Positions 3,930 through 33,004 of a stretch of DNA of 33,145 bases are shown here, in pieces (the stretch's first letter is position 1; every line of letters begins with the position of its first letter). A program made the translations under genes and the position numbers. The notes beneath the pieces were generated by a model. The model made no database searches, was not told the origin of the DNA, and saw only the letters and a list, made by a program, of their open reading frames with translations. The stretch lies in the IMG/VR virus record IMGVR_UViG_2879742664_000006; one strand, given 5' to 3'. Source of the stretch: a virus. Taxonomy: Duplodnaviria; Heunggongvirae; Uroviricota; Caudoviricetes.

Positions 3930-4520
3930 ATGAGCGAAATCAACTATCAGGCATTACGTGAACGTTATTCACCTGTGCCAGTACCGAAATGCCCTATTTG
4001 CGGCGAGGAAATGTCAATTCAGCGAATATCTGGAGCACAGGTTGTTTATGCCTGCTCCGGTTATGGTGATGATGGAGATTTCAAAATTGGCCGAACTCTT
4101 GCTGACAAACATTATGAAAAATCACGCGTAACAGTGTTGGATGTCGGGGATCCTGAAGTATTGGCGCTACTTGATTGGCTGGAAACCAAAGACAACCGAA
4201 TCGCTGAACTGGAAAAAATCGCCACTGACTATGCACTTAAATTCCAGAAAGCACAGGACGCATTAAAGCATGCCGCTTTGCTGCATAGCAGGACGGCGCA
4301 ACAAACAAATAATTTTGCAGTATCGCTTCCGGACATAAGCGAATATTTCATTAATGACGTATTTCAGCCCTTGCGATACGAGCGGGATGTTGAAAGAGCC
4401 ATCATAAAGGCTGGCGGAAAAGCATTGTGGCAGGAGAAACACGAGGACAGAACGCATCAGTCATGCGATGTAAATTGTGGATGGTTTAGCCCACTGACGA
4501 CAGATAAAAATAACACCTGA
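3930..4520 (+). CDS. Hypothetical protein with N-terminal CxxC...C zinc-ribbon-like motif
   Basis: 196-aa ORF; CPICGEEMSIQRISGAQVVYACSGYGDD; central coiled-coil-like stretch. No recognisable family. Confidence 0.6.
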   Translation: MSEINYQALRERYSPVPVPKCPICGEEMSIQRISGAQVVYACSGYGDDGDFKIGRTLADKHYEKSRVTVLDVGDPEVLALLDWLETKDNRIAELEKIATDYALKFQKAQDALKHAALLHSRTAQQTNNFAVSLPDISEYFINDVFQPLRYERDVERAIIKAGGKALWQEKHEDRTHQSCDVNCGWFSPLTTDKNNT

Positions 4521-4947
4521 TCCCCCTCAAACCAGGGCGATAATCGCACATCGCCCTGCTGCACATTTGCACAATTTTTTTGAACGAATTTTTGCCCTTC
4601 CAGCCCGCGTGGCGGCTGGATCCGTCAAGGATCCGTGCGTGCACAAAAAAACGCGCTTTTTCTGCGCGCAGGTGACGGGGGAACAGCCCGCGTTTCAGGG
4701 GGTAAATAGCGTTCCCTTAACGATGTCGCAGCGACACGACAGAATGGCCGTATTTCTCACGCTGAGCGTGAAAAATACGTGAGGGATTCTGATTTGATGG
4801 GGTGAAAGGTAAGGCCGTCAAAATCGCACTGAGGCGGCGAGAACATGCAGTCAACGCGGTGGGATTGCGTAAGAGTCTGACCGTCGATGGTGGCGATAAA
4901 CTGGAAGGCGTCGTGAAATTATCTGACTGATACAGGAGCTGGAGAGT

Positions 4948-4972
4948 CGGGGCATAAATTTTTTATGCCCCG
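4948..4972. terminator. Stem-loop between convergent genes (putative bidirectional terminator)
   Basis: cggggcataaa / tttatgccccg perfect inverted repeat with a T-rich loop, just 3' of the portal gene stop. Confidence 0.35.
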
Positions 4973-4998
4973 GCGAAGCAGCAGACAAGCGAAGCGCG

Positions 4999-6041
4999 TC
5001 AGGATGTGGGCTGGATGTCTAACAGTGCGTAAGGGTTAAAGCGGATCACCTCTTCGCCAAGCCAGTCATTGATGTGCTTCATGGCCTCCATGACGGGCAT
5101 CAGCTCGTTAATTGCGTAAACCCGCGCGGCCTTCTCCACATCACCAAACGCACTTTTTTCACCCGGCATCGCCCCCATCAGTTGCGGCGGAACGCGGTGC
5201 GCAGCCAGCACATCATCACGGGATGCCGCCTTAACATTCATGAACTCATCCTTTGCGGTGATCTGCTGGAACGGCAAAATTTGCACCCCCTCTTTGCCCC
5301 CGTTGGGCGCATGAATGAGCACGTTTTTAAACGCACCACCACCACGCGCACCCTGTAGCGTTTCTTTCAGGGAGTCCATGCTTTCGCGGTTTACCTGCGC
5401 GGCACCGATGTAGATGATGCACCCGGCGTGGGATCCGTTGTCGTAATACAGTTTTCTGAACATGTCCGCCGAATGAGACAGGCTGGCCGAGAGTAATGCG
5501 CCGAGATATTCCGGCATGCCGTAGATTTCCTGGTTAATGTCAGGATTCATCAGGTGACACACTTTGCCTGGGCGAAACTGAAACGCATCCTTGCCATCCT
5601 GCACATACCTCCATGATTCAAGATCGCTTCCGCGTCGCATGTATTTCGCCAGGGCGTGCCGTAATTTAAGCGGTTCGCCGAGCATATTGCTTCGAAGCTC
5701 AAGGAATGCGTTACCGAACACAAACCAGTCCAGCGCCAGCGCCAGCGCCGAGAAATCCTGCCGGGAAAGCAGCGGGTGCGGGATGTAGCAACCGAGCAAT
5801 ACATTGCGCTTAAAATAAAGCGCAGACTGATGCCAGGACGTTTGCCGGGCAGCTCTTGCCAGACCGTACCAGTCCACCGGGGTTTCATACCACCGCCCGT
5901 TATCAGCACAGTACATATTGTCCAGCAGGTCAGGCGATAAGGACCATCAAATGTGAATGCACTGAGCGATGATTCTTTCCTGAGCGCATCAGCGAGATCA
6001 ATGCGTGAACTCATGCGCACTTTTTTATTTTTTCTGCTCAT
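4999..6041 (-). pseudogene. Q: P2 gpQ-like portal protein, interrupted by a 1-bp frameshift near 5917-5946 as sequenced
   Basis: N-terminus MSRKNKKVRMSSRIDLADALRKESSLSAFTFDGP in one frame (track ORF 5550..6041), remainder MYCADNGRWYETPVDWYGL...RFNPYALLDIQPTS in another (4999..5916). Combined length 1043 nt is one short of a multiple of 3. Start overlaps the terminase stop (ATGA). Confidence 0.8.
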
Positions 6042-8806: not shown

Positions 8807-9858
8807 ATGAATCTGGTGATGTCAGATATTACCCGCAACAAGCTGGGTTGCTATATGGCGCAGCAGGTGTCGCTTAATAATATCCCGGTATCTGCACTGG
8901 TGTCGCGATTTACCGTGGAACCCGCGGTGCAGCAGCGTTTTGAAAACGCCTCAAAGGAAAGTACCGAATTTACGAAAAAAATAACGTGATCGGCGTGACC
9001 GACCAGAAAGGCGAAAAAATCCTCCTGGATACCACAGGACCGATTGCGCGCACGAATACCAGTTATGACGGCACAAAACGCCGTAACCCGAATAACGTGG
9101 TTGATCTGAAAAACCGCAAATATCAGTGTGAACAGGTGAACTACGACACGTTTATTTCGTATCCGCAGCTTGATGCCTGGTCGGCACACCCTGATTTTCA
9201 GTCCCGCATCAGCGCACAGATTGCCCGACAGGTGGCGCTTGACCGCATCATGATCGGTTTCAACGGCACGTCTCACGCGGATGAGTCCAACTTCAGCACC
9301 AACAAGCTGCTTCAGGACGTTAACGTGGGCTGGCTGGAGCACATCAGAACCGACGCCAGCGAACGCGTTATGAATGACGTGACGCTGACCTCCCGCAACA
9401 TGGACAACACCGTGGCGCACGCGGGTAAGTATGCGAACGCTGATGCACTGGTACAGGACGCGCGTTCATCCCTGCTAGATGAATGGCACAAGGAAGCTGA
9501 CGACCTCGTGGTGATTATGGGGCGCAACCTGTTTAACTCGCTGCGTCTGCCCGTGCTGAACAGCATCAGCGGCCAGAATCCCAATGCGGAATTACTCGCC
9601 GGGCAGCTCATCCTGTCATCGCGCACCATTGGCGGGCTGGGCGTGTTCCTTGCGCCGTTCTTCCCGGATGCAACGATGCTGATCACCTCGTTCAACAACC
9701 TGTCGATTTACTGGCAGAAAGGTTCAATGCGTCGCCTGATGAAAGACGAGCCGGAATACAACCGCATCGCCACCTACCAGTCCATCAATGACGCTTATGT
9801 CGTTGAAGACTATGGCAAGTGCGCGATGGTTACTGGCCTGAAGTTCGCCGACAGCTAA
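8807..9858 (+). pseudogene. N: P2 gpN-like major capsid protein, frameshifted in an A-run at about 8975-8986 as sequenced
   Basis: Track ORFs 8807..8989 (ends ...ESTEFTKKIT*) and 8986..9858 (...VIGVTDQKGEKILLDTTGPIA...) are both capsid-like and adjacent frames; adding one base in acgaaaaaaataacg gives continuous ...TEFTKKINVIGVTDQ.... Confidence 0.85.
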
Positions 9859-9903: not shown

Positions 9904-10650
9904 ATGATTACTCCTGCACAACAACACTGGCAGAACGTGATGGCACAGCGCGCAGGCCGGGCGAATGAAGGCGTGGACCACGCCGCGCGTACCGCGCATG
10001 AAGAGGTGCTGTATCGTCTGCGTCTGGCACAGGCCCGGCTTAAGGGCGTACAGGCCAGAAGCGCGAAAGCCGCCATCAAAAAAGAGTTGTTGCCGGATTT
10101 TTCCGGCTGGATTGAGGGAACGCTGGAGGCTGACGGCGGGCAGCAGGATGAAGTGATTGCCACGCTGATGGTGTGGGCGATTGACTGTGGCGATCTTCCG
10201 CTTGCGCTGCGTATCGGCGCGTATGTAGTCCGTCACAACCTCATCATGCCGGATAACTTTGGCCGTACTGCTGCCACGGTACTGACCGAAGAAATCTGTA
10301 ATCCGGTACTGACGCAGGCCGGGACGGATGCCGACGCGGATTTGTCCGCCTTTATCGAACCACTGGACACCCTCCGGGAGATTGTCACCGACCAGGACAT
10401 GCCGGACGAAGTGCGCGCCAAATTATGCAAAGCGTGCGCCTTTGCCCGCCGTGGCCTGAGTGATGCGGACAGCATGGCCCTGTCACTGAAGCTGCTGCGC
10501 GAAGCAATGCACCTGAACCCGAACGCAGGTGTGAAACGCGAGATTGCAACCCTTTCCCGCGCCCTGAAAAAAGCCGATTCCGCAGCCGAACCAGAAGACG
10601 CCAGCGCACAGCAGGCGCAGGACGAAAGCAGCAAAAAGCAGCAAAAGTAA
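9904..10650 (+). CDS. M: P2 gpM-like terminase small (endonuclease) subunit
   Basis: 248-aa ORF following the capsid gene, as in P2. Confidence 0.9.
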   Translation: MITPAQQHWQNVMAQRAGRANEGVDHAARTAHEEVLYRLRLAQARLKGVQARSAKAAIKKELLPDFSGWIEGTLEADGGQQDEVIATLMVWAIDCGDLPLALRIGAYVVRHNLIMPDNFGRTAATVLTEEICNPVLTQAGTDADADLSAFIEPLDTLREIVTDQDMPDEVRAKLCKACAFARRGLSDADSMALSLKLLREAMHLNPNAGVKREIATLSRALKKADSAAEPEDASAQQAQDESSKKQQK

Positions 10651-14792: not shown

Positions 14793-15689
14793 ATGCCTGC
14801 CGTTGACCTTTCACAGTTACCGGAACCCGCCATCATCGCGGAGCCTGACTTTGAGGCAATTCTGGCTGACACAAAGGCCATGATGATTGCGTCCTATCCC
14901 GCCGAACAGCGTGAAGCCGTTTCCGCCGCGCTGGAGCTGGAATCGGAACCCCTTAACGTTATCGCTCAAACCATGTCGTTTCGTGAAATGCTGTTACGCC
15001 AGCGGGTCAATGAGGGTGCACGCGCCTGCATGCTAAGCCACAGCGCCGGGACAGACCTGGACAACCTCGCGGGCAATATGAACACAAAGCGCCTGGTTAT
15101 CACTCCGGCAACGGATACCACCGATGCAGTGATGGAAAGTGACACCTCGCTGAGACTACGGGCGCAACGGGCATATGACGGTCTGAGTGTTGCTGGCCCG
15201 TCAGGTGCATACGAGTATTTTGCACGCAGCGCCAGCGGTCTGGTACGCGATGCGCGGGCCATCAGCCCGTCTCCGGCCAACGTGACGGTTTCCATCCTGT
15301 CCACTGAGGGCGACGGCACAGCAACGGAGGCGTTGCTTAATACCGTTCGCGCCGTTCTGAATGCAGAGGATACCCGCCCGGTGGCCGACCGCCTGACCGT
15401 ACAGAGTGCCAGAATCGTGACATGGCGGCTGAATGCAAAACTGTACTTTTACCCCGGCCCGGAATCCGAACCTATTCTGGCCGCGGCTGAATCGTCGTTC
15501 AGGAAGTGGCTGGCTGAGCAGGGGCTTATCGGTCAGGACGTGGCGTTGTCCGCCATTGCTGCCGCACTGCATGTGCACGGTGTGCAACGCGTGGAGATAA
15601 TCGAACCCACACAGAATATGGCCATCAGCGACATACAGGCGGCGCGCTGTGCGTCATTCACCATCAGCGAAGGTGGACGCAATGAGTAA
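14793..15689 (+). CDS. J: P2 gpJ-like baseplate assembly protein
   Basis: 298-aa ORF in the V-W-J-I order. Confidence 0.9.
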   Translation: MPAVDLSQLPEPAIIAEPDFEAILADTKAMMIASYPAEQREAVSAALELESEPLNVIAQTMSFREMLLRQRVNEGARACMLSHSAGTDLDNLAGNMNTKRLVITPATDTTDAVMESDTSLRLRAQRAYDGLSVAGPSGAYEYFARSASGLVRDARAISPSPANVTVSILSTEGDGTATEALLNTVRAVLNAEDTRPVADRLTVQSARIVTWRLNAKLYFYPGPESEPILAAAESSFRKWLAEQGLIGQDVALSAIAAALHVHGVQRVEIIEPTQNMAISDIQAARCASFTISEGGRNE

Positions 15690-16214: not shown

Positions 16215-18200
16215 ATGAGTACCACAACACGAAAATTTAAAACCATTATCACCGATACGGGTGCAAAAAAATTAGCTCAGGTAGCCGCGCCAGATGGTAA
16301 GCCTGTCCGCCTGACTCATATGGCCGTGGGCGACGGTGGCGGCACGTTGCCCACACCAGACAGTAAGCAGACCCGTCTGGTGCATGAGGTGTGGCGACAT
16401 ACTGTTAATCGCGTCATCCTGGACGCAACACATCAGAACCGCATTATTGCGGAGCTGGTTATTCCTCCTGAAACGGGCGGATTCTGGATCCGGGAAATTG
16501 GTGTATTTGATGAGCACGGCGATTTAATCGCGGTGGGAAATACTGCCGAAAGTTACAAGCCAGCCGTTGCCGAAGGGTCCGGTCGTGCACAAACATTTCG
16601 CACCATTCTGACCGTATCCAGCACTGCCACCGTGGCGCTTACCGTGGACAACACCATGGTGATGGCCACAGTGGATTACGTGGATGACAAACTGAAAGAG
16701 CATGAACAGTCACGACGTCACCCGGACGCCTCGCTGACCGCAAAAGGCTTTGTTCAACTCAGTAGCGCCACTAACAGCGTGTCTGAAACGCAGGCTGCAA
16801 CGCCGAAAGCAGTAAAGGCCGCGTATGATCTTGCTAACGGTAAATATACTGCGCAGGATGCCAGCACGACGCGAAAAGGCCTTGTCCAGCTCAGTAGCGC
16901 CACCAACAGCACGTCTGAAACGCAGGCTGCAACGCCGAAAGCAGTAAAGGCCGCGTATGACCTTGCTAACGCAAAATATACCGCTCAGGACGCCACGACG
17001 GCACAAAAAGGGATAGTCCAGCTCAGTAGTGCCACCAACAGCACGTCTGAAACACTGGCCGCGACATCGAAAGCGGTTAAGGCGGTAATGGATGAAACGA
17101 ACAAGAAAGCGCCCTTAAACAGTCCTGCGCTGACCGGAACGCCAACAACGCCAGCTGCGCGACAGGGAACGAATAATACCCAAATCGCAAGCACGGCTTT
17201 CGTTATGGCTGCGATTGCCGCCCTTGTAGATTCGTCACCTGACGCACTGAATACGCTGAACGAGTTAGCGGCGGCGCTGGGAAACGCCCCGAATTTTGCG
17301 ACCACCATGACTAACGCGCTTGCGGGTAAGCAACCGAAAGATGCCACCCTGACGGCGCTGGCCGGGCTTGCTACTGCGGCAGACAGGTTTCCGTATTTTA
17401 CGGGGAATGATGTCGCCAGCCTGGCAACCCTGACAAAAGTCGGGCGGGATATTCTTGCGAAATCGACCGTTGCTGCCGTTATCGAATACCTCGGTTTACG
17501 AGAACTCGGCACAAGCGGGGAGAAAATACCGTTACTCAGTACAGCGAATACCTGGACCAATCGACAAACATTCAGCGGTGGCCTTTCTGGGGAACTGTCC
17601 GGCAATGCCGCTACTGCAACAAAGCTGAAAACAGCACGAAAAATTGCTGGAGTTGGTTTTGATGGTTCTAGCGATATTTCAATTAGTGCCAAAAATGTCA
17701 ATGCATTTGCACTCCGACAAACAGGTAATACTGTTAATGGTGATACATCCGTTGGATGGAATTGGGATAGTGGTGCATATAACGCCCTGATTGGTGGTGC
17801 ATCTGCATTAATTCTTCACTTTAATATAAATGCTGGTAGCTGTCCTGCCGTACAATTCCGTGTGAATTATAAAAATGGTGGCATTTCCTACAGGTCGGCT
17901 CGTGATGGTTATGGGGTTGAATTAGGTTGGTCAGATTTCTATACCACGACACGAAAACCTTCAGCGGGAGATGTTGGTGCATATACGCGGGCAGAATGTA
18001 ACTCAAGGTTTATTACAGGTATTCGCCTTGGCGGTCTGTCATCTGTTCAGACATGGAATGGTCCCGGCTGGTCTGACAGGTCAGGTTATGTCGTTACGGG
18101 TTCAGTTAACGGAAACCGTGATGAATTAATTGATACAACACAGGCAAGGCCAATTCAGTATTGCATTAATGGGACGTGGTATAACGCGGGGAGTATTTAA
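16215..18200 (+). CDS. H: Tail fibre protein (P2 gpH-like), current fusion of constant N-terminal part with variable C-terminal segment Sv
   Basis: 661 aa; three tandem 44-aa collar repeats (KGxVQLSSATNSxSETQAATPKAVKAAYDLANxKYTAQDA); conserved crossover motif ...IEYLGLRE... at the gix-like site; followed by an assembly chaperone gene. Confidence 0.9.
   Translation: MSTTTRKFKTIITDTGAKKLAQVAAPDGKPVRLTHMAVGDGGGTLPTPDSKQTRLVHEVWRHTVNRVILDATHQNRIIAELVIPPETGGFWIREIGVFDEHGDLIAVGNTAESYKPAVAEGSGRAQTFRTILTVSSTATVALTVDNTMVMATVDYVDDKLKEHEQSRRHPDASLTAKGFVQLSSATNSVSETQAATPKAVKAAYDLANGKYTAQDASTTRKGLVQLSSATNSTSETQAATPKAVKAAYDLANAKYTAQDATTAQKGIVQLSSATNSTSETLAATSKAVKAVMDETNKKAPLNSPALTGTPTTPAARQGTNNTQIASTAFVMAAIAALVDSSPDALNTLNELAAALGNAPNFATTMTNALAGKQPKDATLTALAGLATAADRFPYFTGNDVASLATLTKVGRDILAKSTVAAVIEYLGLRELGTSGEKIPLLSTANTWTNRQTFSGGLSGELSGNAATATKLKTARKIAGVGFDGSSDISISAKNVNAFALRQTGNTVNGDTSVGWNWDSGAYNALIGGASALILHFNINAGSCPAVQFRVNYKNGGISYRSARDGYGVELGWSDFYTTTRKPSAGDVGAYTRAECNSRFITGIRLGGLSSVQTWNGPGWSDRSGYVVTGSVNGNRDELIDTTQARPIQYCINGTWYNAGSI
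16743..17100. repeat. Tandem 132-bp repeats (about 2.7 copies) inside the tail fibre gene
   Basis: Near-identical DNA units beginning aaaggc(t/c)ttgt(t/c)ca(a/g)ctcagtagcgcc at 16743 and 16875, partial third from 17007. Confidence 0.7.
17479..17504. other. Left gix/cix-like crossover site of the invertible fibre segment (inside H)
   Basis: ttatcgaatacctcggtttacgagaa is the imperfect inverted complement of the site at 20158-20183 (shared core cctcggtttac); lies at the EYLGL codons. Confidence 0.7.
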
Positions 18201-18202
18201 CG

Positions 18203-18736
18203 ATGATGCACTTAAAAAACATTACTGCTGGCAACCCTAAAACAAAAGAGCAATACCAGCTAACAAAGCAATTTAACATCAAATGGCTTTATTCAGATGA
18301 TGGGAAAAACTGGTATGAGGAACAAAAGAATTTCCAGCCAGACACTTTGAAAATGGTCTATTACCATAACGGCGTTATTATTTGTATTGAAAAGGATGTT
18401 TCAGCAATTAATCCGGAAGGCGCAAGCGTCGTTGAATTACCTGATATTACAGCAAATCGCCGGGCTGATATTTCGGGGAAATGGTTGTTCAAAGATGGCG
18501 TAGTGATAAAGCGAACTTATACCGAGGAAGAGCAGAGGCAACAAGCGGAAAATGAAAAGCAAAGCCTGTTGCAACTTGTCAGGGATAAAACCCAGCTATG
18601 GGACTCACAGCTACGGCTGGGCATCATTTCCGACGAGAATAAACAAAAATTAACCGAGTGGATGCTCTATGCGCAGAAAGTCGAATCTACAGACACCTCC
18701 AGCCTGCCAGTAACGTTTCCCGAACAACCAGAATGA
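18203..18736 (+). CDS. Tail fibre assembly chaperone (Tfa; P2 gpG / Mu U-like)
   Basis: 177-aa [40 protein letters not shown]...; directly after the fibre gene; paralogous to the minus-strand copy at 18765-19293. Confidence 0.85.
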   Translation: MMHLKNITAGNPKTKEQYQLTKQFNIKWLYSDDGKNWYEEQKNFQPDTLKMVYYHNGVIICIEKDVSAINPEGASVVELPDITANRRADISGKWLFKDGVVIKRTYTEEEQRQQAENEKQSLLQLVRDKTQLWDSQLRLGIISDENKQKLTEWMLYAQKVESTDTSSLPVTFPEQPE

Positions 18737-18739
18737 GAG

Positions 18740-18766
18740 AAGGCCCGATATTGGGCCTTAATTTTT
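18740..18766. terminator. Bidirectional terminator hairpin between the two convergent chaperone genes
   Basis: aaggccc-gatatt-gggcctt perfect hairpin followed by aattttt. Confidence 0.5.
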
Positions 18767-19293
18767 ACTCAGGCTTTTGTGGCCATTCGGGATTTGCTGT
18801 ATCCACACGGCTGACCAGAACGCTGTAGCGTTCCCATGACTCCAGTCGTGTGCGTTCCTCATCCATCGCCATATTCAGCCTGACAGCGCGTTCCAGTGGC
18901 TGAATAACGCTTTCAGCTTCAGAAAGCAACGCGACCTTTTGTGATTCGGCCTGTTGTTGCTGTTCGTCTGCTGTATAAATCCGCTTAACCACAGTTCCGT
19001 CCTTAAACATCCACTTCCCTGAATCATCGGCACGACGATTGGCTGTTATATCTGGAATCTCAACGACACTAAAGCCTTCGGGATTAAGCGTTGGGGCATC
19101 TTTGGTTATGGCAACAATAATATTATTTTCGTCGTATACAATCTTTATGGTGTCGTCCTGAAAGTTATTTACTTCCTCATACCAGTTTTTACCGTCTTCG
19201 GACCATAACCAGATAACATCAAAATTCTTTGTTAGCTGATATTGTTCTTTTGTTTTTGGATTTCCGGACTTAATATTTTTTAATATGCTGCAT
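18765..19293 (-). pseudogene. Alternate tail fibre assembly chaperone (Tfa', Mu U'-like), frameshifted at codons 5-6 as sequenced
   Basis: ATG at 19293 gives MQHIKKY* then stop; the body ([37 protein letters not shown]...) is in the +1 frame; removing one A from the A6 run (plus-strand T6 at 19276-19281) gives [17 protein letters not shown]..., colinear with Tfa. Confidence 0.7.
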
Positions 19294-19296
19294 AAT

Positions 19297-20157
19297 TTAC
19301 ACCTGTGCGACGTTATACCATGTGCCATTGATGTATTTTTGTATTGGTCTGAAGATGGCTTCATCATCGCCATCTACTTCACCAATGATTCTTAATCCGG
19401 TAATTGCGTGTCCGGCTTTTTCATAACGACCACCACGCGCCATCAATTGAACAACACGCGTACCCAGGCGAACATCTTTTACATAGCGTGAATCAAAATT
19501 CCCCCAGTTGCTGGGCTGTATCTGACCGTTAACAGAAAATATTACCGAGTTATCTGTATTTCGCTGGCTATAGAAATGCCATCCTGCCTCATTGCCTAAC
19601 TCTGCAACTACTGGACGGGTTGAAGCACCCCATAAATTAAACGTTGCATTCTTTGTGGAGTTGTTGGAGCTGGATAGCGTGAATTTTTTACCATCCCCGG
19701 CCTGAATATTTTTAAAAGCAATAGCCACTCCATTCTGAAAGCGGAATACACGCTGACTATTAGCATAAACATCCAGAATACCGTCTCCATTCTGTTTAAA
19801 TCCGGTGTCATTATCACCAAGAACAATAGAGCTACCACCTAACGCATTCGTCGAACCAACTCCAAGACTGCCATTAATGACAGCATTAACAAGAATATTT
19901 AGTGCATCCCATTTCAGCGTCATCAGGTCTTTTGTTGTGGTGCTCTGGCGGCTTCTCCATTTGAAATATTCATTGCCGTTGTCGCCTGTTTCAAACCACA
20001 TGTATGAATCAGTGTCACCATCGGCATCATTTTTAAATCCAATCTTCGCCCAGTCAGTATTTCGAATCCAGGCAAGGATTGAGTCATTTTCAAAAGTAAG
20101 CCCACCGGACAAGGTATCGCCATTTTTTTGCACGGCGTTACCAGCCCTGTTTACCGT
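19297..20157 (-). CDS. Alternate tail fibre C-terminal segment (Sv'), no start of its own; expressed only after inversion
   Basis: Minus-strand frame open from the right gix site (...[23 protein letters not shown]...) to a stop at 19297; C-terminus ...[17 protein letters not shown] parallels the current H C-terminus ...RPIQYCINGTWYNAGSI. Confidence 0.75.
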
Positions 20158-20183
20158 TTCCTGTAAACCGAGGTTTTAAATAA
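20158..20183. other. Right gix/cix-like crossover site of the invertible segment
   Basis: ttcctgtaaaccgaggttttaaataa closely resembles the Mu gix consensus as I remember it; inverted relative to 17479-17504; 54 bp upstream of the invertase gene. Confidence 0.75.
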
Positions 20184-20237: not shown

Positions 20238-20837
20238 GTGCTGATTGGCTATGTAAGGGTATCAACAAATGACCAGAATACAGACCTGCAACGAAACGCT
20301 CTTGTTTGTGCAGGATGTGAACAAATATTTGAAGATAAATTAAGCGGGACAAAGACAGACCGACCGGGATTAAAACGCGCTTTAAAGCGCCTTCAAAAAG
20401 GTGACACGCTGGTTGTCTGGAAACTGGATCGCCTCGGGCGAAGCATGAAACATCTGATTTCTCTCGTCGGGGAACTACGGGAGCGAGGGATTAATTTTCG
20501 CAGTCTGACCGACAGCATAGACACATCTTCTCCAATGGGGCGTTTTTTCTTCCACGTGATGGGTGCCCTGGCTGAAATGGAACGTGAATTAATTGTTGAA
20601 CGTACACTGGCCGGGCTGGCGGCAGCGCGCGCAAGGGGGCGCACAGGCGGACGTCGACCGAAGCTGACAAAAGAACAGCATGAGCAAATAGCAAGGCTAA
20701 TCAAAAACGGGCACGACAGAAAACAACTGGCAATAATTTACGGCATTGGCACATCGACGATTTATCGTTATCACCCTGTAGGCGATATACAGACTGAAGA
20801 AACAACCGGGCAGACTCAGGAAAATGAAAACCGCTAA
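20238..20837 (+). CDS. Serine DNA invertase of the Pin/Gin/Cin/Hin family
   Basis: MLIGYVRVSTNDQNTDLQRNALVCAGCEQIFEDKLSGTKTDRPGLKRALKRL... (catalytic Ser in VRVSTNDQ), C-terminal HTH; GTG start inferred at 20238 inside track ORF 20220..20837. Confidence 0.9.
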   Translation: MLIGYVRVSTNDQNTDLQRNALVCAGCEQIFEDKLSGTKTDRPGLKRALKRLQKGDTLVVWKLDRLGRSMKHLISLVGELRERGINFRSLTDSIDTSSPMGRFFFHVMGALAEMERELIVERTLAGLAAARARGRTGGRRPKLTKEQHEQIARLIKNGHDRKQLAIIYGIGTSTIYRYHPVGDIQTEETTGQTQENENR

Positions 20838-24754: not shown

Positions 24755-25265
24755 TCAGCCAAGCCCAAGCGCGGAACGGATGCGATCGGGCACAATGTCC
24801 TTGCCGTCCTTCCGGTAAATGAAGTTCAGCAGGTCAATCTCCCACAACGGGCGATCGTTAACACTCAGCTTGTAGTAGGTGTTTTAATGGCGTAAGTGTG
24901 TGATGTGGCTTCGCCCTGTTTGGCTTCCCCCATATCAATTTCCGTCACACGTCCGCGCATTTCGACTTCATACAGGTCGCTTTCTGCATCGGTGTAGTAT
25001 TCACCCGCAAAACGCAGCAGCGTGCCGTCAATCGTGCCGCCATACTTAAGGAACAGCTCACGAACTGCGCCCCCATGACAAAGCTCGCATCAAGCGCGGA
25101 GTCGTCCAGACCGAGATCAATACTTACCGCACCCATCATGCCACCACCCCGGTAGCTGTCGGTTTTGCGCGTCAGCTTAGGCAGAGTGACGGACGTCACA
25201 TTACCCACTTCGTTTTCACCATCCACAAACAGCGTAAAAAAGCGAAGATGTTTTGGCACAGCCAT
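24755..25265 (-). pseudogene. FII: P2 gpFII-like tail tube protein with two 1-bp frameshifts as sequenced
   Basis: N-terminal part in track ORF 24945..25265 (MAVPKHLRFFTLFVDGENEVGNVTSVTLPKLTRKTDSYRGGG...); tube-like sequence continues in two other frames (...GGAVRELFLKYGGTIDGTLLRFAGEYY..., then ...YYKLSVNDRPLWEIDLLNFIYRKDGKDIVPDRIRSALGLG*). Frame changes at a C5 run (25070-25074) and a T4 run (24883-24886). Confidence 0.8.
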
Positions 25266-26606: not shown

Positions 26607-27716
26607 ATGACCGACACCACCATGCAATTGCTCAGTCAGGGCACGGCCCCCGTGAAAATGCCGGATTTTGATATTCTCTCGGAGGGTAAAACGCTGTCAG
26701 GCGTGGCGGAGCGCCTGATGAGCCTGTAACTGACCGACAACCGGGGATTTGAGGCGGACCAGCTCACCATCACGCTGGATGATGCGGATGGTCAGTTGCA
26801 GCTACCGCCACGGGGCGCGCGTCTGACGGTTCTCATTGGCTGGAAAGGGGAACCGCTGACAGAAAAAGGCACTTACATTGTTGATGAAATCGCTCACGAA
26901 GGACCGCCGGACAGGCTGACTGTTTCAGCCAGAAGCGCAGATTTTCGGGATGAATTTAACGTTAAACGTGAGGTGTCCTGGCATGATGTGACCGTTGAGC
27001 GTGTGGTATCCGCCATCACTCATCGGTACGGTCTGAAACCGCAAATCAGCGAAATGCTGATGGATATCGAAATCGACCACGCCGACCAGACCGAAGAAAG
27101 CGACATGTCCTTTCTTACGCGCATGGCGGAAATGCTGGGAGCAATCGCCACGGTAAAAAGCGGCAATCTGTTATTCATCATGCCAGGTGGTGGCGTGAAC
27201 GCACAGGGGCAGCCGTTGCCCTCGTTCGCCATTACACGCAGCAGCGGCGATCGCCATCAGTTCCGCATTGCTGACCGCGAGGCGTATACGGGGGTACGCG
27301 CCTACTGGCTTGATCTTAATTACGGGAAAAAGAAAAAAGTCAGCGTGAAACGCCGCAAACCGCCAAAACCCAAAAAGGAGAAAAGCAGCAGTCGGGAAGG
27401 CGACTATATGGAAGGTGCGGAAGGCAACGTGTTTGTGTTACGCAAGACTTATCAGAACGAGCAGGCAGCAAGACGCGCAGCGGCGGCAAAGTGGCAGCAG
27501 CTACAACGCGGAGCCGCATCATTCTCCATCACGCTGGCGCGTGGTCGTGCAGAACTCTATCCCGAAATGCATGGCACAGTGACAGGCTTTAAAAGCGAGA
27601 TTGATTATCAGGACTGGACTATTGCAAAAGCCGAGCACACCATTGATAACAGCGGCTTTACCACGCAGCTTGAACTTGAAGCAAAAATCCCGGAATGGAT
27701 AGCAGAAACAGAATAA
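26607..27716 (+). pseudogene. D: P2 gpD-like tail protein with an in-frame TAA stop at codon 41 (26727-26729)
   Basis: ATG 26607 with RBS agggaggg; track ORFs 26475..26729 and 26796..27716 are in the same frame, separated only by TAA; D-like sequence reads continuously across it (...GVAERLMSL*LTDNRGFEADQLTITLDDADGQLQLPPRGARLTVLIGWKGEPL...). Confidence 0.8.
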
Positions 27717-27964: not shown

Positions 27965-30900
27965 ATGATTGGACAATTTTTAAGTGCAACAGAGATTTTA
28001 GCAAAGAACTATGTTCGTAATAAAATGGTTAAAAATCCATTTTATTCGAATTTAAAATGGAATTTTATTGAAAAAAACATCATAAGATTAACATCCTCAC
28101 CGGTTAAATCAGTACTTTGCATATCAGCTTTTTCATTTGTACTACTTTATGTTGGATATTTAAACGAATTATTTATAAAAAATAATCTTTTACATTATTT
28201 CCCGTTTAGGCATTCATTAACCGAATGGCAAACAACCATTTTAAGTGGCCAATTGACAATTATTGGTATTGTATACCCCCTTGTTATAGGTTTAGTAAGT
28301 GTCTTATTCCAAAAAAAGGCAGATAGAAAAATAGCCCAAACTGCTTATCAGCGTTACTCAGGATTCATGCTTGCTGGACTCAGCGGGCTTTTCTTATCAG
28401 GATTTATACTTCTCAGTGTACTAATTAAAACTGTCTTTGGAAGTTATCTTTATGGTATAGCTTGTCTAATCAGCATATTATGGCTTTTGATAAACATAGT
28501 TCTTTCTATTTGGTTCTTTATCGTGAGTCTTGAAATTCTTGATGATGTAAAACGGCAAATAATTATAAAGCGATACATTGCCTTCGAAATAGTAATGCCC
28601 CATATTTGTAACAAAATATCAGCCAAGCTTAGGTTATACCCTATCTATCAAAAACATAACTATTCAAATTTAGAAATCACGCAAGCCGATTACAAAGGAG
28701 AATACATATCTGTGGCTAGCAGTTATTCTAAGGAAGATGAGTTAAGTTTATATCACCGTCCTTTTCAACTTACTCTTAATCTTATTAATTACCAACTAAA
28801 AAAGAAGAATCATTTTGCGTCATTTGTCATTGGTGATAATCGTACAAAAGAAACAGAATCCACGGGTAAGATACTTTTTAGCGTTAAAAATATCAAACCA
28901 GACAGCTTATTAATAAAAATACTTAAGCAATGTTTTTATAGGGCTCCGATTAAAGGAGGAGATTTTTCCGTAAGTCTTACAATGCAGGCTATAACAGCAG
29001 ATACGTATATGTATCTGCGGGATTCTGATCTCATTAGTTTTGACAATGCTATCTCTGCATTAATTAATAACTTTAATAATCTCTGCGATTTGTATTTTTT
29101 TCAAGATGATAATACCAACAATAACTTCTTACTGATCACTACAGAATTATTTGAACGGAGTTTTCAATATGAGTTTTCAGATGAAGTTTATAAAATATCA
29201 AATAATTCCATGGATAAAATTAATCTTTCTGAAAGATTTTTTGAATTATGTCTTTGGAGCGGAGTGCGTATTATCAATAATAGAAAACATCTTATCAGCA
29301 ATGAACTTTGTATCTATATGGGAATTACTCGTTCACAATGGTCAATATTAACAGAATGGTTCCGAAACAACCAATCACTCTTAAATGCCTCGCTTCGTTC
29401 ACGTTATAATCGTATATTAAGAACCTATATCACTGTTTGGGAGCAATATCAAGAAAGCATAAACTTTCGTTTCTGCAATACAGAGAATTCAGATTTATTT
29501 GAATTATTTTGCAAAACGCAACTACAAGAACTTCCATCGATGATTATTGATGCAACACAGACTCGCGATCCTTCTACTATTGATACAGCCGTCGATCTTA
29601 TTAACCGATGGCAGCACTCAATGAATATTGACAGCCATTCGGTAGAAAAATACAGTTACAAAGGCCAGCTTTTTAACCCGGGTTTTTTCATATCCAAAAA
29701 ACTAAACTTCAATTCAGACAGAGAGTGGTTCAATATTGCCATCATAAATGCGTTGACTGACATGCGTATATGCACATGTCTTTATCTGACATCAAGAATC
29801 AATACTTCTGACAAACTAATGACACATTACATTAAACTTATTTTAGAGGGTAAACTTATTGACCAAACCGGTGGATATGAAACTCCCACTGAAGAAATTG
29901 ATAATGCAAGCCAACTAATCAAGATATTAATTAGAATCTGCCTGTGGACATGGTCTGAAAATATGGAGCACAATGGGTGGATGAATAGTTTAGCAAGGCG
30001 TTTACGTGACTATGATAAAACAGACATGGTGATGGGCAGAGTTTACAGTAATGTTTTTGACTGTGGATTTATTGATATGGAACAATCATGGGTTCAGCTA
30101 TTATTAATTTTTTCTAACAAGAACGATAGCGTATCAAAAGAAATAAAAGAAGCAATAGAAAACAACTATATAACATATCGTGAGAAGCAACGACTCATTG
30201 GAGTATTATCAAAAATTTGTAACTCCATCGAATACACTAAAATCAAGCTGACTTTAACATTGGACGATCTCCAAACAAAAAAAGAAAACTTAAGAAAGTT
30301 GCTTCAAGAGCATATTAACATGCTAAAGAAAGATCTTGATATGAGACTTCAGGATGCTGCCATAGATGTACATCGACTAGATAGCACTGCACGTAAAACA
30401 TCAGAACATCTTCGTAAACGCATCAAGAAAACGCTCCCTCTTTCACTTTTCAAATCTATTGATTTTAAGCAGGCTAGCGATTGTTTCACAAAACATAAGA
30501 TATCTATTAAGATAGATAAAGAACCGTATGCCGAAGGAATAGAATCCATCCCTTATATCAATGAAGGTGATATTCAAGCAGACTTAATTCTCAAGGACAT
30601 CCAGAGAATAATACTTTCAAATTTATTTAGCACTGGCTGTTCGCAACATACCGTAATAGAAGATTTCAATATGTTGATTGATCACATAAAATCATCTGCT
30701 GACTTGGCTGGCAAACTGGTTCTTGTGATGAGTAAAGAGATCTTTCAGCAATATAATCGTATGCTTTTCGATAATCCCAACCTCAGAGAACTAATGAGAA
30801 AAAATGATGATGGCTCTATGAACATAACTACTGAATCCGGTACCCGTAAGGTTTACTTCTTACCATTTGTTAATCAACCATTTTCTCTTGTGGTAAAGGA

Positions 30901-31084
30901 TAACTACTTCACTAAATTAATTATTAGAGAATATGATAATAATAAGTTAGTAAATGTCACTTCAGAGAATATCAAAAGTGACTCAGATAAATTCAAGCTA
31001 ACTCTTAACTATGAGTTGAATATAGTATTTGAAGGAAACGCTGATTTAAAAATAGCTCACTCGCAAAGAGTGACATCAGAATAA
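27965..31084 (+). CDS. Large membrane-anchored protein of unknown function (1039 aa), AT-rich cargo gene
   Basis: Single uninterrupted ORF, visibly AT-rich (about 17 G+C in the first 60 nt) against GC-rich phage genes; N-terminal hydrophobic helices (residues ~50-190), then ~850 aa with no recognisable motif; possible -10 box TATAAT at 27869-27874. Confidence 0.8.
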   Translation: MIGQFLSATEILAKNYVRNKMVKNPFYSNLKWNFIEKNIIRLTSSPVKSVLCISAFSFVLLYVGYLNELFIKNNLLHYFPFRHSLTEWQTTILSGQLTIIGIVYPLVIGLVSVLFQKKADRKIAQTAYQRYSGFMLAGLSGLFLSGFILLSVLIKTVFGSYLYGIACLISILWLLINIVLSIWFFIVSLEILDDVKRQIIIKRYIAFEIVMPHICNKISAKLRLYPIYQKHNYSNLEITQADYKGEYISVASSYSKEDELSLYHRPFQLTLNLINYQLKKKNHFASFVIGDNRTKETESTGKILFSVKNIKPDSLLIKILKQCFYRAPIKGGDFSVSLTMQAITADTYMYLRDSDLISFDNAISALINNFNNLCDLYFFQDDNTNNNFLLITTELFERSFQYEFSDEVYKISNNSMDKINLSERFFELCLWSGVRIINNRKHLISNELCIYMGITRSQWSILTEWFRNNQSLLNASLRSRYNRILRTYITVWEQYQESINFRFCNTENSDLFELFCKTQLQELPSMIIDATQTRDPSTIDTAVDLINRWQHSMNIDSHSVEKYSYKGQLFNPGFFISKKLNFNSDREWFNIAIINALTDMRICTCLYLTSRINTSDKLMTHYIKLILEGKLIDQTGGYETPTEEIDNASQLIKILIRICLWTWSENMEHNGWMNSLARRLRDYDKTDMVMGRVYSNVFDCGFIDMEQSWVQLLLIFSNKNDSVSKEIKEAIENNYITYREKQRLIGVLSKICNSIEYTKIKLTLTLDDLQTKKENLRKLLQEHINMLKKDLDMRLQDAAIDVHRLDSTARKTSEHLRKRIKKTLPLSLFKSIDFKQASDCFTKHKISIKIDKEPYAEGIESIPYINEGDIQADLILKDIQRIILSNLFSTGCSQHTVIEDFNMLIDHIKSSADLAGKLVLVMSKEIFQQYNRMLFDNPNLRELMRKNDDGSMNITTESGTRKVYFLPFVNQPFSLVVKDNYFTKLIIREYDNNKLVNVTSENIKSDSDKFKLTLNYELNIVFEGNADLKIAHSQRVTSE

Positions 31085-31219: not shown

Positions 31220-31415
31220 ATGTTCCGTTGTCCGCTTTGTGGCGCATCTGCCCGTATCCGCACCAGTCGTCCGGAAAATGATTCAAACACCGTGAGACAA
31301 AAGTATTATCAGTGTAACAATCTAGAATGCGGCGTATGTTTCTCAACACTGGAAGCCTTCCACAAATTCACTTCAAAGCACGCCTCCCCCATTCACTCAT
31401 CAGAGGGCATCCCGT
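31220..31415 (+). pseudogene. ogr: ogr-like zinc-finger late-gene activator, 3' end split off by IS2 (remaining codons at 32746-32823)
   Basis: MFRCPLCGASARIRTSRPENDSNTVRQKYYQCNNLECGVCF... (CxxC...CxxxxC); the IS2 terminal repeat begins at 31416 inside the frame, which resumes after the IS2 left end as ...PWHELPTSHRGNNQMSLPLPQN*. Confidence 0.8.
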
Positions 31416-31426
31416 TGGATTTGCCC

Positions 31427-32331
31427 CTATATTTCCAGACATCTGTTATCACTTAACCCATTACAAGCCCGCTGCCGCAGATATTCCCGTGGCGAGCGAT
31501 AACCCAGCGCACTATGCGGATGCCATTCGTTATAATGCTCGAACGCCTCTGCAAGGTTCTTTGCTGCCGTTAACCCGTCTGGTTTGGGCATGATACTGAT
31601 GTAGTCACGCTTTATCGTTTTCACGAAGCTCTCTGCTATTCCGTTACTCTCCGGACTCCGCACCGCCGTGTTCTTCGGTTCAAGTCCCAACATCCGGGCG
31701 AACTGGCGTGTTTCATTAGCCCGGTAGCATGAACCATTATCCGTCAGCCACTCCACTGGAGACGACGGAAGATCGTTGCCGAAGCGGCGTTCCACCGCTC
31801 CCAGCATGACGTCCTGTACTGTTTCACTGTTGAAGCCGCCGGTAGTCACCGCCCAGTGCAGTGCCTCACGATCACAGCAGTCCAGCGCGAACGTGACACG
31901 CAGTCTCTCTCCGTTATCACAGCAGAACTCGAACCCGTCAGAGCACCATCGCTGATTGCTTTCTTTCACGGCCACTCTGCCTGTATGTGCCCGTTTCGAT
32001 GGCGGTACAGCAGGTTTTCGTCAAGCAACAGCGCATTCTGGCGCATGATCCGGTAAACACGTTTGGCATTGATCGCAGGCATACCATCAAGTTCTGCCTG
32101 TCTGCGAAGCAGCGCCCATACCCGACGATAACCATACGTGGGCAGCTCTCCGATAACATGGTGTATACGGAGAAGCACATCCGTATCATCAGTGTGACGA
32201 CTGCGGCGGCCATCCATCCAGTCATCGGTTCGTCTGAGAATGACGTGCAACTGCGCACGCGACACCCGGAGACAACGGCTGACTAAGCTTACTCCCCATC
32301 CCCGGGCAATAAGGGCGCGTGCGCTATCCAC
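31427..32331 (-). pseudogene. insD: IS2 transposase OrfB (InsD) with an internal 1-bp frameshift near 32019-32025
   Basis: Split into track ORFs 31966..32331 ([12 protein letters not shown]...[28 protein letters not shown]) and 31427..31975 ([17 protein letters not shown]...); the shifted frame reads [24 protein letters not shown], so one base is missing around cttga(a)cgaaaacc. Confidence 0.8.
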
Positions 32332-32654
32332 TTTTTTGCCCGTCCATATTCAACGGCTTCTTTGAGGAGTTCATTTTCCATCGTTTTCTTGCCGAGCAGG
32401 CGCTGGAGTTCTTTAATCTGCTTCATGGCGGCAGCAAGTTCAGAGGCAGGAACAACCTGTTCTCCGGCGGCCACAGCAGTAAGACTTCCTTCCTGGTATT
32501 GCTTACGCCAGAGAAATAACTGGCTGGCTGCTACACCATGTTGCCGGGCAACGAGGGAGACCGTCATCCCCGGTTCAAAGCTCTGCTGAACAATTGCGAT
32601 CTTTTCCTGTGTGGTACGCCGTCTGCGTTTCTCCGGCCCTAAGACATCAATCAT
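32289..32654 (-). CDS. insC: IS2 transposase OrfA (InsC)
   Basis: [56 protein letters not shown]...; track ORF starts 15 codons upstream at 32699. Confidence 0.85.
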
Positions 32655-33004
32655 CTGTACTCCAATGACTAGTCTAAAAACTAGTATTAAGACTATCACT
32701 TATTTAAGTGATACTGGTTGTCTGGAGATTCAGGGGGCCAGTCTACCGTGGCATGAACTGCCAACTTCACACAGAGGAAACAATCAGATGAGTTTGCCCT
32801 TACCTCAGAATTAACGAGCAGAATTGCCGGAGTAACAAAAAAGCGATAGATTACGCGCGGGTGCCTTTCGGCTGATGGTCGGAGGGAATACCTGAAGGCC
32901 AGATGTGGAAAGGCCCCGGAAAACATTTTTGTTTAACCGAGGCCCTAACCGTCTACCCTAAGCAAGTGATAGGTTAGCGCCTCCCCGAAAAAGGAGCAAG
33001 CGCT

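Follow-up and report, generated by a model that had tools for sequence, protein, structure and literature searches.

Apparent neutral decay of a fibre chaperone gene in the invertible tail-fibre module of a defective Shigella prophage

In the G segment of phage Mu (S, U, U′ and S′; invertase gin) and the C segment of phage P1 (invertase cin), a constant fibre part is combined with two convergent variable parts and two convergent chaperone genes, with 26-bp inverted sites and an adjoining serine invertase, and all of these features recur in the locus described here. Shigella genomes carry many pseudogenes and insertion sequence (IS) elements, together with decayed cryptic prophages. An invertible B segment with its invertase gene pinB was reportedly described from Shigella boydii by Tominaga, Ikemizu & Enomoto in 1991 (J Bacteriol 173:4079; GenBank D00660).

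We analysed a stretch of 33,145 nt from an IMG/VR virus record (IMGVR_UViG_2879742664_000006), here called the window. It is colinear with the Xuanwuvirus genomes P88 and P88_4B11: late genes and invertible module align at approximately 96-99% nucleotide identity. Its late region has the P2-family layout: gpJ (14793-15689), gpI, the fibre gene, tfa, tfa′ and Sv′ (both on the minus strand) and the invertase gene, beyond which gpU, tape measure, tube and sheath genes all lie on the minus strand (Table 1). The alternate fibre chaperone gene, tfa′, carries a frameshift. We consider it about 90% probable that this frameshift is inherited neutral decay in a defective P88-like prophage of the S. boydii lineage, in which the invertase still flips its segment both ways.

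Table 1. Coordinates of features in the window
Feature	Position	Strand	Remarks
IS3-family transposase genes	56-1269, 1442-2936, 31427-32699		Take the place of the early region
Portal gene lesion	5928	-	10-bp deletion, frameshift
Major capsid gpN lesion	8982	+	1-bp deletion (A8 to A7), frameshift
terS lesion	10625-10634		10-bp duplication (AAAGCAGCAA) near the 3′ end
Tail fibre gene, current orientation	16215-18200	+	661 aa; constant part and Sv
Left 26-bp crossover site	17479-17504		Core dinucleotide 17491-17492; inside the fibre gene
Invertible segment	17492-20170		2,679 bp; exact flip reproduces locus L008
Tfa of current orientation	18203-18736	+	Intact, 177 aa, Mu/P1 U′ type
tfa′ pseudogene	18765-19293	-	Mu gpU orthologue; body in the +1 frame relative to the native ATG
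187-aa ORF from upstream ATG 19328 (inside Sv′)	18765-19328	-	Publicly annotated as ‘tail fiber assembly protein [Shigella]’
Residual 7-codon ORF, MQHIKKY and TAA	19270-19293	-	Begins at the native tfa′ start
A6 run (T6 on the plus strand)	19276-19281	-	Wild-type length, not the lesion; six A’s also in P88_4B11, P88 and P1 U
Inserted base of tfa′ (A on the minus strand, T on the plus strand)	19284	-	1-nt insertion; frameshifts tfa′ at codon 4; lone alignment gap
Sv′, alternate variable fibre C-terminal part	19297-20170	-	Intact
Right 26-bp crossover site	20158-20183		Core dinucleotide 20170-20171
PinB-type serine DNA invertase	20238-20837	+	199 aa, GTG start, intact
Tail tube FII lesions	~24882-24887 and 25070	-	Two 1-bp deletions, frameshift

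An inserted base in codon 4 of tfa′

A preliminary description of the window had read the minus strand from ATG 19293 as MQHIKKY followed by a stop, had recognized the rest of a chaperone homologue in the next frame and had ascribed the break to an additional A in the A6 run, at codons 5-6. The sequence agrees with the first two readings. From the ATG at 19293-19291 the codons are ATG CAG CAT ATT AAA AAA TAT TAA, with the stop at 19272-19270 and the T6 run at exactly 19276-19281. The +1 frame after this stub is open for 171 codons, up to a stop at 18767-18765; in protein alignment this body, free of stop codons, shares 98% of its residues with intact 175-aa orthologues, and it matches Pfam Caudo_TAP (E = 4e-35), the family of tail fibre assembly proteins of the Mu gpU / P2 gpG type. 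Its colinearity with the plus-strand Tfa, also proposed earlier, is upheld at 56% identity, far above chance. An intact tfa′ orthologue matches the Mu tail fibre assembly protein U (PDB 5YVQ_B) from end to end (E = 3e-111). No uninterrupted open reading frame runs from the conserved start (MQHLKNI... in intact genes); tfa′ of the window stops after seven codons and, with respect to its native start, is a pseudogene.

That one A has been gained thus stands; its placement in the A-run does not. Alignment with P88_4B11, P88 and P1 U leaves a single gap, at 19284 in codon 4. Whole-window blastn against P88 and P88_4B11 returns this gap as the only one within the invertible segment, and it appears again against four Shigella sister loci (L018-L021). 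The window allele reads CAT-A-TTAAAAAA, with the extra A between CAT and TTAAAAAA. The intact alleles of P88 and P88_4B11 begin ATG CAG CAT TTA AAA AAT ATT AAG (MQHLKNIK), and P1 U begins ATG CAG CAC TTA AAA AAT. A gap at 19284 costs 0 mismatches, versus 2 if it is put in the A-run. These alignments place the tfa′ lesion, an insertion of 1 nt, in codon 4 and outside the homopolymer, three bases upstream of A6.

The earlier attribution to the homopolymer is contradicted by P88, P88_4B11 and P1 U, which carry the same six A’s. The comparison with orthologous invertible segments that had been suggested as a check, run here with P1 and additionally with the P88 types, finds A6 in its wild-type state and the insertion elsewhere; because the run has wild-type length, counting five versus six A’s in sequencing reads would aim at the wrong position. 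Dropping one A from A6 does restore the frame, as had been noted, yet the product begins MQHI... and not with the ancestral MQHL...; the wild-type N terminus in intact relatives is MQHLKNIKSG, not MQHIKNIKSG. The hypothetical repaired allele with five A’s was also looked for in viral contigs by exact pattern and was not found, because the true intact allele is CATTTAAAAAAT and not CATATTAAAAAT. A frameshift adjacent to a homopolymer should not be blamed on that homopolymer without comparison with relatives; here the run length is wild type.

Inversion of the segment in both directions

The two crossover sites are inverted relative to each other, each with the core GA on the site strand. The invertase matches Pfam Resolvase (E = 1e-50) and HTH_7, and over residues 1-183 it is 98.9% identical to the P88 invertase. 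When the segment is flipped in silico, the alternate fibre is intact at 716 aa and shares 98.6% identity with the fibre that P88_4B11 expresses. Both fibre variants (661 and 716 aa) are therefore intact in the window and both chaperone genes are there, tfa′ being frameshifted at codon 4. The constant fibre part also holds two imperfect direct repeats of approximately 214 bp (16739-17083; 86% identity), corresponding to repeated SSATNS(T/V)SETQAATPKAVKAAYDLAN motifs.

The reading frames support the view that tfa′ would not be translatable from its own start. The flipped 716-aa fibre gene would therefore precede a 7-codon stub, and probably no functional Tfa′ is made. To this extent the preliminary description was right that the flipped form lacks its chaperone at the native start; the phenotypic consequence that it attached to this does not follow in a defective prophage (see below).

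Its further proposal, that the switch would be effectively one-way, conflicts with the distribution of orientations. Among the loci that carry the lesion, seven are flipped (L003, L004, L005, L008, L009, L012 and L013) and five have the orientation of the window (L002, L006, L007, L010 and L011), so the switch is two-way at the DNA level, where inversion is the work of the intact invertase next to the segment. Over 20,564 bp, L008 differs from the window flipped in silico by a single mismatch, which lies outside the segment; this match indicates that the inversion was precise and recent. Judged by comparison of these near-identical loci, the segment inverts in both directions. The most that the lesion could do is to deprive virions of one orientation of their infectivity.

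The invertase gene is intact in the window and in L003, L005, L006, L008, L009, L010 and L013, and frameshifted in L004, L007, L011 and L012. In three of the latter (L004, L007 and L011) tblastn splits the protein in the same way, into residues 1-54 and 41-199 (around window 20360-20400), with the frameshift around codons 41-54. Strains with a frameshifted invertase are fixed in either orientation, L004 flipped and L007 and L011 unflipped. A separate event touches the alternate fibre: in L002 (1-238) and L003 (1-255), Sv′ is joined at window position 19831 to the end of the IS3-family element that the window has at 56-1311. The alternate fibre thus seems to have received an IS insertion in these two IMG/VR contigs (genomes 2751185970 and 2751185972), which have the segment in opposite orientations.

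A defective prophage and the fate of tfa′

Around the module, the prophage has decayed. A tblastn search of the window with P88 proteins did not find int, C, cox or repA; ParM was cut short, and the matches to portal, gpN and FII were each divided between reading frames. The terS duplication alters the C terminus, such that 247 of 266 residues align. A split capsid gene (60 + 290 aa) is present in the gene calls of L004-L010, and the tube gene is truncated or uncalled in most Shigella loci. On these frameshifts relative to P88 and P88_4B11, virions would be expected in neither orientation. A tailocin, that is, a head-less killing particle, was considered and ruled out, given the two frameshifts in the tail-tube gene.

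Several further observations concern the backbone. The portal gene has an in-frame 6-bp duplication, CCAGCG, at 5730-5735. The window holds three to four IS3-family elements or fragments with HTH_Tnp_1 and rve ORFs (56-1311, 1431-2936 and 31414-32745); only 122 bp of early-region remnant lie between IS elements (1309-1430), and the right end of the prophage is interrupted by an IS3-family element. Between gpD, which ends at 27713, and a remnant of the ogr/hok region, a plus-strand ORF of 1039 aa (27965-31084) is conserved in all Shigella loci and is not at the equivalent position in P88 or P88_4B11. No Pfam or PADLOC entry matches it; one possibility is a cargo or defence-type gene that occupies a variable locus of the P2 family. 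In the P88_4B11 record (L014, NC_049391.1), 4229-5266 contains only a 489-nt ‘major head protein’ and an opposite-strand hypothetical ORF, where the P88 capsid gene has 1053 nt. This may be an error in the P88_4B11 record or a lesion, and because of this doubt P88 served as the main reference.

A sister lineage, comprising L018, L019 and two short contigs, is 99.5% identical to the window, and the source records name its Tfa′ protein for S. boydii. Its tfa′ is intact (175 aa), and both the 19284 insertion and the terS duplication are missing. At 8982, L018 and the window align without an indel, so the capsid frameshift is common to both. With that frameshift and an intact tfa′ in L018, the capsid gene therefore broke before the tfa′ insertion.

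The following course of events accounts best for these findings. A P88-like (P2-family, Xuanwuvirus-type) prophage of the S. boydii lineage carried a PinB/B-segment fibre module. Its tfa′, the Mu gpU orthologue, gained an A at 19284, in codon 4, such that native translation ends after seven codons. The insertion arose in an already defective prophage, most probably as neutral decay and not as a regulatory device. The invertase keeps flipping the 2.7-kb segment both ways, and phage particles would come from neither orientation. We infer that the tfa′ lesion has no phenotype: with head and tube genes broken, it would be without consequence for the fibre switch.

Could tfa′ nevertheless be alive? 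Translation might begin at ATG 19328 or ATG 19373 and give an N-terminally extended Tfa′, with native residues 4-175, that works as a chaperone. The +1 frame is open back to ATG 19373 (a 202-aa ORF), which is preceded by an SD-like GGTGA (-5.8 kcal/mol), and the 187-aa product from ATG 19328 joins native residues 4-175 to a 15-residue foreign N terminus, retaining the whole of Caudo_TAP (residues 52-187) and the conserved motif. Against this, ATG 19328 lacks a Shine-Dalgarno sequence (+2.2 kcal/mol), and both ATGs lie inside the Sv′ coding sequence in a different frame. Moreover, the native ATG 19293, 4 nt past the Sv′ stop, keeps its Shine-Dalgarno sequence, AGGTG, intact 8 nt upstream (SD:anti-SD -6.3 kcal/mol); the two together should therefore capture ribosomes and direct synthesis of the heptapeptide. 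The 202-aa ORF is not recorded as a called gene, whereas the 187-aa form is. The N-terminal extension probably represents the 3′ end of Sv′ read in an alternate frame, because the upstream ATGs would be out of frame with tfa′ in insertion-free relatives. The undamaged tfa′ body is compatible with a recent lesion and equally with continued use. We regard an active upstream start as very unlikely, and with head and tube genes broken it would be moot for phage biology.

A broader proposal is that the fibre, chaperone and invertase module is maintained in working order within a prophage whose head and tube genes are lost, with tfa′ leakily expressed. Recent flipping, the two intact fibre variants and the undamaged tfa′ body all speak for this, as does an intact invertase in 8 of the 11 loci that contain the gene. 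Were it true, tfa′ would leak through an upstream ATG or a +1 slip on A6, and the module could be a reservoir of host-range cassettes for superinfecting P2-, Mu- or P1-type phages; alternatively, PinB could be retained for action in trans on other invertible DNA. We give this proposal only a faint chance.

Recoding would be a third route, in which a +1 ribosomal slip of tRNA-Lys or transcriptional slippage on A6 yields MQHIKNIK... at a low and possibly regulated level. Homopolymeric A runs are known slippage sites, and if the tRNA moved by +1 from the first AAA onto the AAA that overlaps it, reading would resume precisely in the chaperone frame. Substantial transcriptional slippage requires runs of approximately 8-9 or more, and A6 is shorter. 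Programmed frameshifts are conserved in homologues, but here all relatives outside the Shigella lineage, and the Shigella sister lineage too, are in frame; the A6 run is ancestral and did not arise together with the lesion; and no stimulator was seen on reading the sequence (no Shine-Dalgarno sequence 3 nt upstream, no slow or stop codon in the A site). We therefore find recoding scarcely credible. Internal restart was also considered and rejected: the body frame contains no ATG, GTG or TTG between 19328 and 19100, and the sole candidate, a weak ATT at 19274, shares bases with the stop codon and lacks a Shine-Dalgarno sequence. As far as the sequence can tell, functional rescue of tfa′ is unlikely, and it would be irrelevant to phage production given the defective prophage.

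The distribution of the insertion bears on whether it is authentic, which the preliminary description had questioned as a possible read error. All 12 Shigella-type loci fetched carry CATATTAAAAAAT, among them S. boydii serotype 4 Sb227 (L005, CP000036.1); another, L010 (CP026811.1), is 100% identical to window 8765-29328, and the exact allele was found in two IMG/VR contigs. The 187-aa ORF that the insertion creates has entries in 636 index blocks of the assembly collection and was located on 506 contigs; it goes by the names ‘MULTISPECIES: tail fiber assembly protein [Shigella]’ and, in UniRef, A0A3T2UXY4_SHIFL. Searches with a 61-mer centred on the lesion site gave 0 identical sequences among 119 matching E. 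coli complete-genome records, 12 matching phage records and 32 matching plasmid records; in each set, the listed matches have 60 bases versus 61. An exact scan of the GTDB species representatives for the window allele gave no match, we think because Shigella is folded into E. coli there, with one representative. From the 12 loci and the 506 contigs it follows that the insertion is an inherited mutation of a Shigella lineage and not an artefact; on this comparative evidence it is real and has been passed on vertically. A miscount of the T6/A6 homopolymer in sequencing or assembly has a negligible probability: the lesion does adjoin a homopolymer, and other lesions of the prophage are changes in homopolymer length (A8 to A7 at 8982, C6 to C5 at 25070), but A6 is equally long in intact alleles, the extra base at 19284 lies outside the run, and the identical allele is present in 12 independently assembled loci (complete chromosomes, drafts and IMG/VR contigs) and on the 506 contigs.

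Read as neutral decay, the insertion has little biological weight, being one among six or more lesions that inactivate genes of this cryptic Shigella prophage. It matters more for annotation. Because public annotation picks the upstream ATG, the lesion is masked as a 187-aa ‘tail fiber assembly protein’, and Tfa catalogues therefore carry an artefactual N terminus on approximately 500 Shigella contigs. The gene itself is an ordinary pseudogene in a known invertible-segment system, with nothing new about it.

Relation to known invertible segments

The module is of the known PinB/B-segment type of invertible tail fibre, and its architecture is not new. It shares with the S. boydii B segment the host lineage (L005 being Sb227), a Din-family invertase next to the segment and an organization like that of Mu G. 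In a published table that includes the S. boydii PinB system (PMC3241671, citing Tominaga et al. 1991 and D00660), bixL is given as TTCCTGTAAACC GA GGTATTCGATAA, which equals the reverse complement of the flipped left site; after the flip, the right site is one base off the bixR given there. The published inner half-site is TTCCTG, where the window has TTCTCG. The P1 record notes identity to D00660, over a stretch that ends approximately 75 nt short of the lesion site. The window module and the S. boydii B segment are almost certainly the same element.

The likeness to Mu and P1 extends to the chaperones, the intact form of tfa′ resembling Mu gpU and the plus-strand tfa being of the U′ type. 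It differs in that the chaperone genes of Mu and P1 are both intact and in that the backbone of the window is P2/P88-like. P88 and P88_4B11 (Xuanwuvirus, Peduoviridae) are colinear with the window in both late genes and module. In P88, however, portal, capsid, tube, terS and tfa′ are intact, whereas the window has frameshifts in all five, lacks int, C, cox and repA, and bears several IS3-family elements. These several independent frameshifts and IS insertions, fixed across a lineage, are shared with other decayed Shigella prophages, from which the prophage in the window differs in that it retains its invertase and the flipping of its fibre segment.
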